A stretch of DNA of 64,000 bases from Escherichia phage L14. Under the pieces are notes generated by a model. It was not told the DNA's origin and did no database searches. It worked only from the letters and a program-made list of their open reading frames with translations. The translations under genes and the position numbers were made by a program. Location: sequence record OQ992558.1; one strand, 5' to 3'. Below, in pieces: positions 1 to 19,160 of the stretch. Position 1 is the first letter of the stretch, and each line of letters begins with the position of its first letter.

Positions 1-25
1 ATTCCAAAAATCTTATTAATTATAT

Positions 26-223
26 TCATACTAATTCCTTTAATCCGTAGATAGGAGATAATTCATCGCCCATACGAAGGTCTTCATTTCCATCTACCCA
101 AGAAACAATATAAGCCTCTTTTATTTGAATACCACTCCATTTAAACGAAGGTAGAACCTTAGAAATTAATCCAGGTATATCAACTCCCTTTAATTCAACG
201 GTTTGATCTAAAAAGAATTTCAT
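26..223 (-). CDS. hypothetical protein (65 aa)
   Basis: ORF in tightly packed minus-strand early block; no motif recognised. Confidence 0.35.
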   Translation of the reverse strand: MKFFLDQTVELKGVDIPGLISKVLPSFKWSGIQIKEAYIVSWVDGNEDLRMGDELSPIYGLKELV

Positions 224-510
224 TAGAACCTCATCTGAAAACCATGCGATTTAACATTACCTCCACCAATATCAGAAATATTAATTTCGCGCGCAATTGA
301 AGGGTCAATGTCAATTTCACGATTGAGTTTAGTGATAGCTAAAGTATCGCGCCCATTTACAGTACGAAACTCTAAAGGACAAACCACATCAACGTAGTTT
401 TTAATCGATTCGCTAGTAGGCTGCAAATGTGCAGGAAGGTCTTTAGGCGCCTTTGAGAAAACTACTTCGCAGAAGTTTTTACGAGTATCAAAATAAGTGG
501 TCATAAACAT
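223..510 (-). CDS. hypothetical protein (95 aa)
   Basis: ORF preceded by GAGG Shine-Dalgarno; stop/start packing with neighbours. Confidence 0.45.
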   Translation of the reverse strand: MFMTTYFDTRKNFCEVVFSKAPKDLPAHLQPTSESIKNYVDVVCPLEFRTVNGRDTLAITKLNREIDIDPSIAREINISDIGGGNVKSHGFQMRF

Positions 511-3183: not shown

Positions 3184-3764
3184 TATTCACCACAGAATTC
3201 GTTGATATTTTCCCAGTTTAACTTATTCAAGTTTTTCTTAGGAACATTAAACACTTCAATACCTGCATTTCGCAGAATATCATCCCAGCCAGGTTTATTT
3301 TTATCGTATGTTTCACAATAAACCAGCTTTTTAATTCCAGATTGAGCTATTGCTTTTGCACAATCTGGGCAAGGAGAAAGTGTTACATACATAGTAGCAC
3401 CTTCAATTGAAGAACCGTTTCGTGCAGCAAACAAAATAGCATTTAGTTCAGCATGAATTTCATTTTTAGACGACCATTCAGAGTGCGCGCTACGATGTTC
3501 TTTCGCCAATACAAAACGATCAGTTGAACCAAACGATACACATTCAGGCTTATGACCTTGAATGATAGTATGTTTAGGCTTATTCAGCAACCAACCTTGC
3601 TCAGCAGCATAATCACAGCAGTTCACACCACCTGCAGGTGAACCATTATATCCAGTAGAAATAATACGTCCATTCTTTTCAATTACTGCTCCTACTTTCC
3701 AGGAGCAACATTTTGATTCTTGTGATACTAAATATGCAATTTGAAGTACTGTACTCGCTTTCAT
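3183..3764 (-). CDS. cd: dCMP deaminase (193 aa)
   Basis: Zinc-dependent deaminase motifs HAE...PCxxC (HAELNAI...SPCPDCAKA) visible; length equals T4 Cd. Confidence 0.9.
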   Translation of the reverse strand: MKASTVLQIAYLVSQESKCCSWKVGAVIEKNGRIISTGYNGSPAGGVNCCDYAAEQGWLLNKPKHTIIQGHKPECVSFGSTDRFVLAKEHRSAHSEWSSKNEIHAELNAILFAARNGSSIEGATMYVTLSPCPDCAKAIAQSGIKKLVYCETYDKNKPGWDDILRNAGIEVFNVPKKNLNKLNWENINEFCGE

Positions 3765-4099: not shown

Positions 4100-4332
4100 A
4101 GTACGCCATACACCCTTTGTGCTTCAACTAATCCATCAAAATCCAATTTGAGATGTGTTATTTGGTCACCATCACCTGGATTCACAATTACTAATACTGA
4201 ACGAGGAGTTTCGGTAATAACACGAACCGATGTTTCGGGAAATCGTTCAGAAACCTTATTTACTAATTCCTGCGCAAATAGTTTAACTTTTTCTTGGAAT
4301 TCTTTAACAGTAATTGGTTTTTCACTTAGCAT
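4096..4332 (-). CDS. hypothetical protein (78 aa)
   Basis: ORF in cd-pseT interval; start overlaps upstream stop. Confidence 0.45.
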   Translation of the reverse strand: MLSEKPITVKEFQEKVKLFAQELVNKVSERFPETSVRVITETPRSVLVIVNPGDGDQITHLKLDFDGLVEAQRVYGVL

Positions 4333-4853
4333 GTTGATCCCAGCTCCTTACTTTCAACGTTTTTAACTAATTTGACAGAAACTAATTCAGCATCTTGGGT
4401 AATCATTACCGGGCCTTCTTCATACTCTTCAAGATATTCTAGAGCTTTCTTTTTAGCTTCTTCCTTTGTATCAGTTTGAGCATAGATATAAAACATGCAA
4501 CCAGTAATACCTACTACTTTCCACTTAATTTCTTTATCAGTTTTAATTTCAAATTTACTGGCAGAATCATCTTTTTGAACTTCTTCGAAAAAAGAATATT
4601 CTAACATATAAGCAATTGAAAATAACGGGCTAACTTTATAGGATTCACCCATTACATCAACAGCTTTATACCAACAATCATCAATTTCGCGTTTAATGCT
4701 AATAACATTCTTTGCAGGGTCAATTTTTACTTTAAATGAATTTTCCCCAATAAACTGGGCGATTCGTTTATTAGCCCCGCAAGTTTCATTAAAAATATCT
4801 TTATACCCAGTTTTAAAGCGATAAACCTTATCTTCTTCAAACCATTCGCTCAT
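4326..4853 (-). CDS. hypothetical protein (175 aa)
   Basis: ORF in cd-pseT interval. Confidence 0.45.
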   Translation of the reverse strand: MSEWFEEDKVYRFKTGYKDIFNETCGANKRIAQFIGENSFKVKIDPAKNVISIKREIDDCWYKAVDVMGESYKVSPLFSIAYMLEYSFFEEVQKDDSASKFEIKTDKEIKWKVVGITGCMFYIYAQTDTKEEAKKKALEYLEEYEEGPVMITQDAELVSVKLVKNVESKELGSTC

Positions 4854-4883
4854 TTCAATTTCCTCATTTGTTTTGGTAGAGCT

Positions 4884-4913
4884 ATAATATCACAACTCTA
4901 CCGTAAAGTAAAC
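4884..4913 (-). promoter_or_regulatory. T4-early-type promoter (GTTTAC / TATTAT)
   Basis: plus gtaaac 4908-4913, ataata 4884-4889, 18-nt spacer. Confidence 0.45.
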
Positions 4914-4915
4914 CA

Positions 4916-5221
4916 TTAAATCGCTTTGAATTCCGCAGTTTGAGATTCAAAGCGAATGTCGCCTTTGATAACTAGCTCAGCATCAAGACCGAATACAACA
5001 ATGATATGCGCGGAACCTGGATACAACGTAATGGCAATAGAATCCACCTGGTCTGGAAGCAAAGTGTTCAATACATGAGTCACTTGAGCGTGGATTCGAA
5101 GCTCAGCTGCGTTATCAAGTTTTTCAAACATATTATTAGCGATAATTTGGCTAAACACTACTTCTACGATTTTAGAGTAAGTCGGAAACATATTTACCTC
5201 ACATAATTTTCTTCGAGCCAA
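4916..5221 (-). CDS. hypothetical protein (101 aa)
   Basis: ORF in cd-pseT interval. Confidence 0.45.
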   Translation of the reverse strand: MARRKLCEVNMFPTYSKIVEVVFSQIIANNMFEKLDNAAELRIHAQVTHVLNTLLPDQVDSIAITLYPGSAHIIVVFGLDAELVIKGDIRFESQTAEFKAI

Positions 5222-9506: not shown

Positions 9507-10685
9507 TTAAAAGTATTTTTTAAAACTCATCATAACTTTATCATCAACATCATTATCAATCTGTGCAACAAGATAAGATGACAGTTCTACTTCTTGTGGC
9601 GCTGATTGAACATTATCAGAATTAAGATATTCACGAATCCAAGGATATGGATGTTTAACCGGAGCATCGGTAATTGGGCATGGAAGACCGCACTGTTTCA
9701 TACGAGATACAGTTAAGTAATCAATAAAGCTCCACATGCTATTTGTATTTAATCCAGGAACATCGCCATCTTTAAATAAATGAACTGCCCAATCTTTTTC
9801 TTGACGGTTAACTTCCATGAAAATATCAACTGCTTCTTGTTCACACTCTTGAGCAATTTTAACCCATTGATCGCCATCAGTACCAGATTGAAGTTGACGA
9901 ATAATATATTGTGTACCTTTAAGATGAAGCTGCTCATCACGTGCAATGAACTTCATAATCTTGGCATTACCTTCCATGATTTCCATGTTTTTATGGAAGT
10001 TAAAGGTACACGCAAAGGATACATAAAAACGAATAGCTTCTAATGCATTAATAACGTGCAAACAGAGGTAAAGAGATTTCATTAGCTCACGCTTCCAATA
10101 TGTCTCATGCTCAATAGCATCTTCAATAACGTCTTCGTCTGCATTAATTTCTTTTTGGTATTCGATATCAGCTTTAGCGTTTTCCCAATAACGAGTTTTA
10201 ATCAGAACATCATCATAATAACGTCCAATGGATTCAGCACGTTTCATAATAGCTTCATCTAATACAATTTCATCAAATACCTTCGATGGATCAGTATAAA
10301 GATTTCGCATGATATGAGTATATGAACGACTGTGAATAGTTTCACTAAAAGTCCATGTAGCAACCCATGTATCAAGGCTTGGGTCTGAAATTAATGACAT
10401 AAGTACAGCAGATGGCGCGCGACCCTGAATGCTATCTAAAAGTGATTGATACTTCAAGTTGTTAGTAAAAATATTTTGCTGATACTGAGGAAGCTTATTA
10501 AACTGTGCAGCATCCATCATCAAGTTTACTTCTTCAGGACGCCAGAAAAATGATAATTGCTTTTCGGTTAAATCTTCAAAAACTTTATGACGTTGAATAT
10601 CATAACGCGCAATACCAAGACCTGAACCAAAAAACATAGGTTCTTTTAAAACATCAACTGGATTTGTATTAAAAACTGTGCTCAT
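9507..10685 (-). CDS. nrdB: ribonucleotide reductase small subunit (392 aa), uninterrupted
   Basis: Di-iron/tyrosyl-radical R2 family by sequence recall; single continuous ORF (no intron). Confidence 0.9.
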   Translation of the reverse strand: MSTVFNTNPVDVLKEPMFFGSGLGIARYDIQRHKVFEDLTEKQLSFFWRPEEVNLMMDAAQFNKLPQYQQNIFTNNLKYQSLLDSIQGRAPSAVLMSLISDPSLDTWVATWTFSETIHSRSYTHIMRNLYTDPSKVFDEIVLDEAIMKRAESIGRYYDDVLIKTRYWENAKADIEYQKEINADEDVIEDAIEHETYWKRELMKSLYLCLHVINALEAIRFYVSFACTFNFHKNMEIMEGNAKIMKFIARDEQLHLKGTQYIIRQLQSGTDGDQWVKIAQECEQEAVDIFMEVNRQEKDWAVHLFKDGDVPGLNTNSMWSFIDYLTVSRMKQCGLPCPITDAPVKHPYPWIREYLNSDNVQSAPQEVELSSYLVAQIDNDVDDKVMMSFKKYF

Positions 10686-10736
10686 AAATTTTCCGCTTAG
10701 TTAATAGTTGGTGACTCGTCCGTGAGTCAAATTATA

Positions 10737-13558: not shown

Positions 13559-13870
13559 TTACACCGCCATTTTTCCTTTCAAGACGCCGTGGGACTGATA
13601 ATCTTTGAGAACGAAATCTTTAGGCCTGAGTTTAAGAATGTATTCCAATTGTTCTTTAGTAGAAAGATAGCGGAATTTATAAGGCAATCCGCCTATTACC
13701 AGTTCACAAAGCTCTTTAGGTTCACGACGCAAAATTTCTTTACATTGTTCTACGTGATTCATATAGATATGAGTATTACCACCGGAAAATATCAAATCTC
13801 CCGGAATAAGATTACACATCTTAGCTACAATATGAACTAACGTAGCATATGATGCAATATTAAATGGAAG
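13559..13870 (-). CDS. td: thymidylate synthase, exon 2 (103 aa + stop)
   Basis: Begins CTT CCA TTT (LPFNIASY...) directly after intron 3' terminal G; in frame with exon 1. Confidence 0.9.
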   Translation of the reverse strand, partial: LPFNIASYATLVHIVAKMCNLIPGDLIFSGGNTHIYMNHVEQCKEILRREPKELCELVIGGLPYKFRYLSTKEQLEYILKLRPKDFVLKDYQSHGVLKGKMAV

Positions 13871-14190
13871 CATTATGTTCAGATAAGGTCGTTAATCTTA
13901 CCCCGGAATTATATCCAGCTGCATGTCACCATGCAGATCAGACTATATCTTCAACTTGTTAAAGCAAGTTGTCTATCGTTTCGAGTCACTTGACCCTACT
14001 CCCCAAAGGGATAGTCGTTAGGCATTTATGTAGAACCAATTCCATTTATCAGATTTTACACGGTAAGTAACTAATCCTGATGAAATTATTAAAGGGTAGT
14101 CCTACAATTTAGCACGGGATTGTCTACTAGAGAGGTCCCCCGTTTAGATAGATTACAAGTATAAGTCACCTTATACCTAGGCCTCAATTA
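13871..14190 (-). other. group I self-splicing intron in td, 320 nt, no internal ORF
   Basis: 5' end UAAUUGAGGCCUAGGUAUAAGGUG..., 3' end ...UAACGACCUUAUCUGAACAUAAUG match recalled T4 td intron ends; exon 1 ends in U, intron ends in G. Confidence 0.85.
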
Positions 14191-14739
14191 ACCCAAGAAA
14201 ACATCTACACTGCGTTGATACCATTGTAAATCAAGATAACCATTACGCACATTAAACTGATAGAACATATGACAAGGTGGTAATGCCATATATTTAAGTT
14301 CAGCTGGATTCCACGCAGAAACAATTTGACGCCTATCACTTGGTAGTTTTTTAATACGATCAATAACTTCTATAATTTGGTCTACACCGCCAAAATCGCG
14401 CCACTGTTTTCCATAAATTGGGCCAAGTTCACCACTATGGTATCCTAAATCTTTTGCCTGATTTTCGTAATTTTCATCCCAAACTGTTTTGCCTTGGATT
14501 AACGAATCATGCTGAATTAATCGTAAATCATTGACATTTGTGCTTCCTGATAAAAACCAAAGTAGCTCAGCAATGCAAGCTTTCCAGGCGAGCTTCTTAG
14601 TTGTTACCGCAGGAAAACCTTTAGTTAAATCCCAGCGTAATTTAGTACCGAATAAAGCAATTGTTCCTGTGCCTGTTCGGTCATCGGTTTCATAGCCATT
14701 TTCAAAAATGTCTTTAATTAAATCTTGGTATTGTTTCAT
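14191..14739 (-). CDS. td: thymidylate synthase, exon 1 (183 aa)
   Basis: TS active-site region ...LPPCHMFYQF...; ORF hits stop UAA exactly at intron 5' end. Confidence 0.9.
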
Positions 14740-14784: not shown

Positions 14785-15132
14785 TCAATACGGTTTAGCA
14801 TCAAATTTTCTCTCAATTTCAGGTGTGAAATATAATTCTTTACCACGTTTGGAAAAGCGACCAATAATATGATAATTATTCTCATCAAACGTGATATTAC
14901 CAATATCCATAGCTTTCAACCAAATATCGATATTTCTATCCAGCTTTATGTCAAAATTCCAATACGGAGAACTATTACCGAAAATACTGCAAGCGGATTC
15001 AGTGAAACAACTGCTATAAATCTTGTCTTTAGGAACTACTAATTGATAGACACCTTTAATAAACTGAGGACCCTGCCACTTTGGCTGTTTCGTGTCTTTT
15101 TCTAATAGAATAGGGTAATAATTAAAATTCAT
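14785..15132 (-). CDS. hypothetical protein (115 aa) inserted between frd and td
   Basis: Clean ORF filling a ~410-bp gap where T4 frd and td directly overlap (recalled). Confidence 0.5.
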   Translation of the reverse strand: MNFNYYPILLEKDTKQPKWQGPQFIKGVYQLVVPKDKIYSSCFTESACSIFGNSSPYWNFDIKLDRNIDIWLKAMDIGNITFDENNYHIIGRFSKRGKELYFTPEIERKFDAKPY

Positions 15133-17497: not shown

Positions 17498-18406
17498 TTA
17501 AAGGTCATTCAAAAGGTCATCCAGGTCTGTGTCATCAGCACTAGATGAACTGCCAGAGCTTGAGCTCATAAAATCATCTTCAGTTTTTGTTTTGAAGTCA
17601 TCAACATTGAATGCATCCAAATCATCAGCAACTTTATCAGCTTTCTTAGCGGCAGTTGCAGCGGCACCACCCATTGCAGCAGTTCCCATAACTTGACTGA
17701 ACTTAGTGCTCAGTTCTTCAAATGATTTGAATTTATCTTTAGAAGTCATTTCAGAAAGGTCAACCATTTGTTCGAACAGTTCTTTCTGGAAAGATTCATC
17801 GTCAATGTTTGGAATCGCAGATTGATTCAGGAATTTAGATTCGTCGTAGTTACTAAATCCAGAAACCTGTTTAACTTTCAGTACAAAGTTAGCACCTTCC
17901 CACGGACAAGTTACATCAACCGGAGTTTCACCCATTTCAACATCAACCGCAATCATCGCGTTGATTTTATCCCAGATTTTCTTACCGAAACGATATTTAA
18001 ATACTTTACCTTCATTTTCTGGAGCAGCTGGGTCTTTTACAACAAGAATATTAGCCCAGTAAGAAGTTTTACGTTTAACAAGACTGTACTCTTTATTGTC
18101 AGTGTTGTACAGATCATTTTTACTGATGTACTGACATACTGGACAAGAATCGTAATCACCGTGGGTAGATGAACAGTTTTCAATATACCATTTACCATTT
18201 TTCTTGAAACCGTGATTTACAAGAATTGCGAATGGTGCTTGTTCATCATTTTTAGACGGAAGAAAACGAATTACTGCTTGACCGTTACCCGCATTGTCGA
18301 GTTTCAGTTTCCACTCGCCTTTATCTTCAGAAGAAAAACCACCTTTATTTCCAGCCAGTTTAGCCATTTGTGCAGCGAGTTCAGCAGTAGATTTACGTTT
18401 AAACAT
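17498..18406 (-). CDS. 32: gp32 single-stranded DNA-binding protein (302 aa)
   Basis: N-terminus [17 protein letters not shown]... and acidic C-terminal tail match recalled T4 gp32. Confidence 0.93.
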
Positions 18407-18475
18407 TTTTATTTCCTTTTTTAATTTAATTAACAGTTGGTGCTATGACGATGTATGACCTCATAGCTGGTCAGT
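18407..18475 (-). promoter_or_regulatory. gene 32 translational operator: pseudoknot plus AU-rich UUAAAUUAA repeats
   Basis: Minus-strand leader CAGCUAUGAGGUCAUACAUCGUCAUAGCAC then UUAAUUAAAUUAAAAAAGGAAAUAAAAAUG, as recalled for T4 gp32 autoregulation. Confidence 0.6.
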
Positions 18476-18506
18476 GAGATAATTATAATCTATTTATAAT
18501 AAGCAA

Positions 18507-19160
18507 TTAATACTTGCAAGATTTCACAGTTTCAATGAAAACATTTTTAGCTTTCTGTGAATCAATATTTAAAATTTTTCTATAAGCCTTTAACTTTATA
18601 GAATAATTATTCCAGACTAAATTATCAGTCTGTTCATCGTGTTTATCAATTATATTTAAAAACGAATCAAGCAAGATAAACGTTTCAAACGAAATTATAT
18701 TCGATTGAAGTAGTTTAAAAATATAACTTGATTGAACTTTTGGATTATACTCAAAGATTTCTTTAAAAGCAGAAACTTCAACTTTTTTACTAAAATAGTA
18801 AATATTGCGAATATCTTCTTCAAACTTAAATTTAATTTGCTTTAAGCGTCCGATATATTCACGATAAAACACAAGTGCATCAGCGTCAGAGATGTCGCCA
18901 ATCCAAGCATCCTGGTTAGCAACAAGATTGCTTATAAAGATTAAAGCAAGTTCCTTTAATTTATATTTTTCTGATAACTTCTGGAAAAAATACTTATCCC
19001 TTCGCTTTTGATAAGCGGCATCAGACACCCGCATGCACCAATTATACTTAATAACATCATACTTTCCATTCATATGCTGTTTTATCATTAAGTATAATTT
19101 ATAAACTGATTTACCATCAATGTATCTTTCACCACCAGCAGGCATGCGGAGTTTAATCAT
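18507..19160 (-). CDS. 59: gp59 helicase loader (217 aa)
   Basis: Length and position between 32 and 33 as in T4. Confidence 0.8.
   Translation of the reverse strand: MIKLRMPAGGERYIDGKSVYKLYLMIKQHMNGKYDVIKYNWCMRVSDAAYQKRRDKYFFQKLSEKYKLKELALIFISNLVANQDAWIGDISDADALVFYREYIGRLKQIKFKFEEDIRNIYYFSKKVEVSAFKEIFEYNPKVQSSYIFKLLQSNIISFETFILLDSFLNIIDKHDEQTDNLVWNNYSIKLKAYRKILNIDSQKAKNVFIETVKSCKY

Follow-up and report, generated by a model that had tools for sequence, protein, structure and literature searches.

The intron in the thymidylate synthase gene (td) of phage T4, which together with its relatives we take to belong to group I subgroup IA2, carries the gene of the homing endonuclease I-TevI at positions 133-870 of the 1017-nt reference sequence used here (NC_000866.4). 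Constructs from which this ORF has been deleted, roughly 265 nt in length, are standard splicing substrates. The td ribozyme withstands a disrupted ORF loop in P6a and works when permuted there (PMC8554844), and of the I-TevI sequence no more than the final 20 nt (F241-A245 and the stop codon) contribute to P6a, P6 and P7 (Edgell, Chalamcharla & Belfort, PMC3073962). The T4 nrdB intron with I-TevIII can be mobilised in trans only (PMC2790892, PMC2988022), and for T4-type phages it has been documented that introns which are defunct or lack an ORF home in trans (PMC2790892, PMC3984707). Degeneration or deletion of the homing endonuclease gene (HEG) after its sites have been saturated is the standard homing-cycle model (Goddard-Burt, summarised in PMC5009752).

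The 64-kb stretch of DNA analysed here (the window) is a segment of a Tequatrovirus (T4-like) genome, and over the 520 nt around its td intron it does not differ from phages HP3, U115, SYGD1 and ESh30 (100% identity). On the minus strand the td frame runs from 14739 to 14191, breaks off, and picks up at 13870 with CUUCCAUUUAAU (LPFNIASY) to reach its stop at 13559. The gene is made up as follows.

14191..14739, minus strand: td exon 1, 183 codons, ending ...UUCUUGGGU / CUUGGGU
13871..14190, minus strand: group I intron of the T4 td type, 320 nt, starting UAAUUGAGG, with its terminal G at 13871
13559..13870, minus strand: td exon 2, 103 codons and stop, starting CUUCCAUUU (LPFNIASY)

The original prediction had split td by a 320-nt intron at 13871-14190, which proved correct to the base; the stop of the frame, its restart at LPFNIASY, the U of exon 1 and the G of the intron were also as described. 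The intron begins with UAAUUGAGGCC at 14190 and ends with ...CUGAACAUAAUG at 13871. The last nucleotide of exon 1 is U and that of the intron is G (...AUAAUG at 13871), i.e., the omega-G of a group I intron. When the exons were joined in silico, a single 286-aa ORF was obtained whose sole stop is terminal. Its product covers the whole Pfam Thymidylat_synt model (1-266/266, E 1e-94) and is identical to the T4 enzyme at 275 of 287 positions, the stop being counted. In silico splicing gave an intact 861-nt td CDS in all eight alleles examined.

The group I identity of the intron was confirmed by Rfam family RF00028 (Intron_gpI), which matched 14200..13919 over its full model (1-253/253) with 70.3 bits (gathering score 50; E 8.1e-16). 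Since this score was so high and RF00028 was the sole Rfam family detected across the window, the match is far beyond chance. The covariance-model and T4-alignment check proposed with the original prediction thus found the complete model, and helices P1 to P9.2 could be mapped. They were defined on the window allele and checked by program in nine natural alleles.

Exon -7..-1 with intron 9-15, minus strand: P1, 7/7 standard pairs
14176..14182 (intron 9-15), minus strand: internal guide sequence GCCUAGG, pairing 7/7 with exon CUUGGGU
14160..14175 (intron 16-21 / 26-31), minus strand: P2 hairpin, 6/6 pairs, GUGA loop
14147..14152 (intron 39-44) with 13972-13977 (intron 214-219), minus strand: P3, 6/6 pairs
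14114..14143 (intron 48-77), minus strand: P4-P5 domain
Intron 48-53 / 72-77: P4, 6/6 standard pairs
Intron 58-60 / 66-68: P5, 3/3 standard pairs
14022..14113, minus strand: P6 and P6a (P6 2 bp, P6a 9-10 bp, terminal loop of ~58 nt)
Intron 78-79 / 168-169: P6, 2/2 standard pairs
Intron 85-93 / 154-162: P6a, 9/9 standard pairs
14011..14016 (intron 175-180) with 13941-13946 (intron 245-250), minus strand: P7, 6/6 pairs
13983..14010 (intron 181-208), minus strand: P7.1/P7.2 hairpins, identical to T4
13952..13971 (intron 220-226 / 233-239), minus strand: P8 hairpin, 7/7 pairs
Intron 255-261 / 266-272, minus strand: P9, GUGA loop, from the segment fold and the Rfam alignment
Intron 273-288 and 289-309, minus strand: P9.1 and P9.2, folding as hairpins (P9-P9.2 together 13882..13936)

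The core helices P3, P4, P6, P7 and P8 and the P3/P7 pseudoknot that characterise group I introns are all in place. Loss of P3, P7 or the G-binding region, which the original prediction had named as the finding that would speak against it, was not observed: P1-P9.2 are present and canonical. The 5' strand of P1 is formed by the last 7 nt of exon 1, and the helix ends at the 5' splice site in the U.G wobble pair typical of group I introns. The guide sequence reads GCCUAGG in the window and GCCUGAG in T4, and TuIa has the window version. By this GA to AG change a G.U and an A-U pair were swapped for an A-U and a G.U pair, so every pair is kept and P1 remains fully paired. P7, the helix carrying the guanosine-binding site, has the same sequence as in T4, and compensatory changes in P8 were found in other alleles (A-U to U-A in N2, G-C to C-G in Klebsiella phage EI). 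Three further differences from T4 deserve mention. A54G, in a joining region near J4/5 of the P4-P5 domain, is common to the full-length intron of TuIa; G240A, in J8/7, brings the joining region to the Rfam consensus UGAAGAUAUAGUC; and C253A is present in many I-TevI-positive alleles as well. The terminal loop of P6a (~58 nt) contains a deletion scar and ORF debris, and on its own the P6/P6a segment adopts the expected fold, in which this remnant is looped out (-19 kcal/mol, z -2.4).

Given its near-identity (97%) to the characterised ribozyme of T4, the window intron would be expected to splice. The alternative that it is dead, through A54G, G240A or misfolding around the P6a debris, and that td is a split pseudogene in a phage living on host ThyA, is quite improbable. 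Since td is dispensable for T4 on thyA+ hosts, phage viability is no proof of splicing, and several GenBank records do annotate two separate 'thymidylate synthase' CDS. However, the helices are all canonical and the 3' core (170-320) is just two positions from T4. G54 also occurs in an I-TevI-positive intron, A240 is the family consensus, and T4 itself holds ~750 nt in its P6a loop without harm. In every carrier examined both exons are open over their full length, and synonymous changes are in strong excess: between the window and Shinka, both with the 320-nt allele, td shows 28 synonymous and 5 nonsynonymous codon differences. This excess fits a td gene that may be under purifying selection and, indirectly, an intron that probably still splices; the argument is weakened because most exon divergence may predate the deletion described below. 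With the exons intact and the core canonical, the pseudogene reading was rejected.

The compact size of the intron is explained by its alignment to T4. Window positions 1-103 correspond to T4 1-104 and positions 104-320 to T4 801-1017, and the two introns are collinear, with nine substitutions, one 1-nt indel and a single gap of ~696 nt. T4 positions 105-800 are absent, and the gap lies wholly inside the P6a loop. This bears out the original view of a T4-kind td intron that is compact since I-TevI is absent. Because the ORF occupies 133-870 in T4, the region just upstream of it, the start codon and codons 1-223 are gone, and the end of the coding sequence has been left behind.

14087..14088 (intron 103/104), minus strand: deletion junction ...CCCUUUAAUAA / UUUCAUCAGG..., equal to T4 intron 104/801
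14018..14086, minus strand: I-TevI remnant, codons 224-245 (ISSGLVTYRVKSDKWNWFYINA) with TAA at 14020..14018 and no start codon

The parental flanks of the junction are ...UUUAAUAA / AUACUUC and ...CAUUUUGAAA / UUUCAUCAGG. The microhomology between them is 2-3 nt and A/T-rich (up to TTTAA-AA against T4-type sequence); since it is so short, it is uncertain whether slippage or illegitimate recombination caused the deletion. The T4 RefSeq intron has one extra T at position 93 compared with all other alleles examined.

The search for ORF remnants suggested with the original prediction found codons 224-245 at the place where T4 has I-TevI. In a tblastn search of the window with T4 I-TevI, residues 224-245 matched 14086..14021 with 22/22 identity (E 1.9e-9), which in practice excludes that this 66-nt block is not homologous to I-TevI; no other I-TevI homologue was detected in the 64 kb, and nothing else fell below E 0.4. 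The absence of a homing-endonuclease ORF had been predicted and was confirmed: an intact one, as a mobile intron would carry, is not present, the ORFs within or overlapping the intron are just four mechanical ones of 32-33 aa, and no in-frame start for the I-TevI frame was found within it. The last ~20 nt of the remnant serve also as 3' strands of P6a and P6. Because these suffice for the structure (PMC3073962), ~46-49 nt of coding sequence have been kept without a structural role, and codons kept beyond structural need mean that the endonuclease was lost, and not that it had yet to arrive.

The original prediction had left open whether the intron was caught before endonuclease invasion or had lost its endonuclease; with all 22 I-TevI codons kept, the second part stands and the first does not. 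A primordial td intron that never carried I-TevI might be imagined from the lack of an ORF and the compact size, and ORF-less introns older than HEG capture have been proposed in the collaborative-homing model (PMC3984707). However, 22 in-frame I-TevI codons and their stop, extending ~46-49 nt beyond what the ribozyme needs (PMC3073962), are not expected of such an intron. Furthermore, the synonymous variants seen in the remnant are those of an intact I-TevI of the TuIa type, the missing block is one clean gap in the T4 intron, and the N2 class (254 nt, no I-TevI trace) is a better candidate. A never-invaded window intron is therefore effectively refuted by the remnant and has a very low probability.

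The origin of the remnant could be traced further. TuIa (AY262157), whose td intron is 1016 nt, is the closest full-length relative of the window's 5' core and remnant; both introns have GCCUAGG and G54, but TuIa has kept the whole HEG with an intact 245-aa I-TevI. The 5' core (intron 1-103) is 1 nt from TuIa and 4 nt from T4, and the 66-nt remnant is 1 nt from TuIa (98% identical) and 3 nt from T4. All three of the latter differences (TCG to TCA, TCT to TCA, TAT to TAC) are synonymous and equal the TuIa codons. These similarities indicate that the P6a region of the window allele descends from a functional TuIa-type endonuclease gene. In the 3' core (170-320), fFiEco06 has 1 difference from the window, T4 2 and TuIa 4. 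A TuIa-like 5' core and remnant joined to an fFiEco06/T4-like 3' core make the window allele a recombinant mosaic. The window, Shinka and fFiEco06 do not differ at all in exon 2 (100% identity), and exon 1 has 37-40 differences, all within codon positions 16-531; this contrast between the exons suggests that a boundary of recombination or co-conversion may lie at the intron or close to it.

The junction is not confined to the window. A 90-nt junction query matched 16 public records end-to-end (HP3, U115, SYGD1 and others), which correspond to ~13 independent isolates when HP3 derivatives are collapsed, with E. coli, Shigella and Yersinia as hosts. The carriers form two sub-lineages that have the junction in common and differ at five intron positions, a pattern that fits a single deletion probably shuffled later by recombination. 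A collapse or mis-assembly of the I-TevI region can be dismissed as an explanation of negligible probability, since the 16 records with the identical junction are independent in laboratory, host and country and include two sub-lineages 5 intron positions apart. For comparison, the 5' part of the td intron was found in ~247 records, the td flanks in 742, and full-length td introns in about 210-250. At least four other short td alleles with different junctions (445, 315, 262 and 254 nt) were found among the best 60 matches of longer lists, so that the class counts are lower bounds.

445 nt (G28, FL18, F1, FN, 112): T4 223-792 deleted between CAUUUUAAA repeats; ~30 N-terminal codons kept
315 nt (Klebsiella phage EI): T4 141-843 deleted between GGAAU repeats; ATG and 4 codons kept
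262 nt (PD112, 215Ecol030PP, CE1, BYEP01): T4 94-848 deleted; P6a closed by a minimal loop
254 nt (N2, CJY920, 236Ecol005PP, HMD-9, GRNsp7): P6a replaced by GUUC-UUUU-GAAC, an unrelated 4-bp hairpin; no I-TevI trace

Since each has its own junction, these alleles represent independent events. At least five short alleles, the window's included, make up about 14% of the td-intron-bearing records. The description of the window intron as a natural minimal td ribozyme was overstated, because introns of 262 nt (PD112) and 254 nt (N2) exist and ~50 nt of the window intron are dispensable debris. The RF00028 scores of the short alleles of EI, PD112, N2 and Shinka range from 63.8 to 73.8 bits. An Rfam scan at the gathering threshold recovered the shorter td alleles but not the introns of T4 (1017 nt) and G28 (445 nt), presumably because of the long P6a insertions in these two; HEG-bearing group I introns can thus escape default cmscan.

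Two of the short alleles have features of their own. In N2 (ON645936) the intron at 3501-3754, of a class found in at least five phages, has a perfect P6a hairpin and no I-TevI remnant. A full-length, free-standing I-TevI homologue, 243 aa long and 46% identical to the T4 protein (E 2e-71), occupies the nrdA.1 slot at 4324-5055; it is encoded on the strand opposite to td, ~260 nt downstream of it. The N2 arrangement could be one of collaborative homing, in which an intron that was never invaded is paired with an endonuclease encoded apart from it. In Klebsiella phage EI (MN106245, 701-1015) I-TevI was deleted independently, with ATG and 4 codons joined to the ORF's 3' end, and its note in GenBank says 'with intron of plasmid pMTL007C-E2'. 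The EI intron is 89% identical to that of the window and the td exons just 67%, a contrast which is strong evidence for a cross-genus transfer of the intron. Introns better conserved than exons, as in the T4 and EI comparisons, fit a horizontal movement of introns that may have occurred among phages, and the T-even intron survey of Sandegren and Sjoberg (2004) reportedly also concluded that introns move horizontally among phages.

Compared with T4, the genome stretch around td in the window has few homing endonucleases. The nrdB gene (9507-10685, 392 aa) is uninterrupted, with neither an nrdB intron nor I-TevIII, and the nrdA-nrdB gap is just 51 nt (region 9507-10736), so mobE and hef are absent; segG is missing as well, genes 32 and 59 being direct neighbours (17498-19160). 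SYGD1, which has an identical td intron, has HEGs at the nrdA-nrdB and 32-59 positions. Between frd and td, a 115-aa ORF without a Pfam match lies at 14785-15132 on the minus strand; in other phages frd and td overlap (T4) or are separated by a 68-aa (fFiEco06) or 116-aa ORF (N2). This gap appears to be a variable 'optional gene' slot beside an intron-bearing gene. As for annotation, HP3 (NC_041919, locus 1052-2232) and other carriers have td as two 'thymidylate synthase' CDS with no intron feature, and ESh30, Pinarejo, Elenatom and others have as many as three CDS annotated 'hypothetical protein' in the region formed by the intron and 100 nt of flank on each side. The RefSeq taxonomy line of HP3 reads 'Rosemountvirus', but its sequence is a Tequatrovirus-type genome.

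The observed anatomy, homology, deletion boundaries, remnant, intact exons and population distribution are best explained by a T4-family td intron of TuIa-type descent that lost I-TevI by one ~696-nt deletion in the P6a loop, a reading to which we assign a probability of about 0.9. The pre-mRNA would fold into P1-P9.2, and P7 would bind exogenous guanosine, which would attack after the U of the P1 U.G pair and free exon 1. The end of exon 1 would then attack after the terminal G (13871), and the ligated td mRNA would give a normal 286-aa thymidylate synthase. The deletion took the I-TevI start and codons 1-223 and left the last 22 codons as untranslatable debris. Because I-TevI is missing, the intron no longer promotes its own homing; we infer this immobility, as well as immunity to I-TevI and mobilisation in trans. 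The intron would persist since an occupied site offers no target to the I-TevI of co-infecting phages, and only precise excision gives td back (PMC2988022). With I-TevI supplied in trans, it could still be copied into an intronless td. An intact intron in an occupied site, with a 22/22 remnant and HEG-positive relatives, is what the degenerate-HEG stage of the homing cycle looks like.

A more far-reaching idea, speculative and on balance doubtful, is that HEG-less td alleles act as I-TevI-immunity alleles and that the HEG cycles through resident introns by recombination. If this were true, such alleles would block I-TevI cleavage and marker exclusion without the cost of expressing an intron-borne I-TevI, the 22-codon remnant and the 5' core would be homology arms for repeated loss and regain of I-TevI, and the HEG would cycle within a permanently occupied site and not through intron loss. 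The mosaic structure, the one junction in two intron backgrounds and the at least five short alleles are compatible with this idea and do not demonstrate it.

Both the td intron and endonuclease loss are already well known, and at least 16 public records already contain the junction. No phage group I intron has been studied better than that of td, and HEG loss is predicted once sites are saturated, so the finding carries little weight as a discovery; a literature search for natural ORF-less td introns yielded reviews of HEG degeneration and trans-homing and, among the papers found, no description of the 320-nt allele. Its practical value is in annotation, as td in HP3-type genomes, which include a phage used in therapy studies, should be one spliced gene, and the hypothetical genes that some records show within the intron are spurious. 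Furthermore, the at least five natural short td alleles are a natural experiment on the P6a requirement of the td ribozyme, and they also inform on HEG decay and recombination rate in Tequatrovirus populations.

Compared with known systems, the window intron is closest in kind to the T4 td intron (NC_000866, 1016-1017 nt). The gene and the insertion site after ...CUUGGGU are the same, the end of exon 1 is identical, and the collinear introns have the P1-P9.2 architecture and the location of the ORF in the P6a loop in common, which places the window allele in the T4-type td lineage; identity is 97% (97.2%) over the 320 shared nt and lower in the exons (92.3%). The G28, EI, PD112 and N2 classes are likewise one intron at one site with the HEG absent or truncated. 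The T4 nrdB intron with its defunct I-TevIII is another T-even group I intron that persists after its HEG was inactivated by a large deletion, but it differs in gene and HEG family and has kept a partial ORF. Laboratory td derivatives that lack the ORF loop of P6a, or have it permuted, are also compact ribozymes without an ORF, and the dispensability of the P6a loop fits the td ribozymes permuted there (PMC8554844); these derivatives are engineered, whereas the window allele is natural and has kept ~50 nt of ORF debris.
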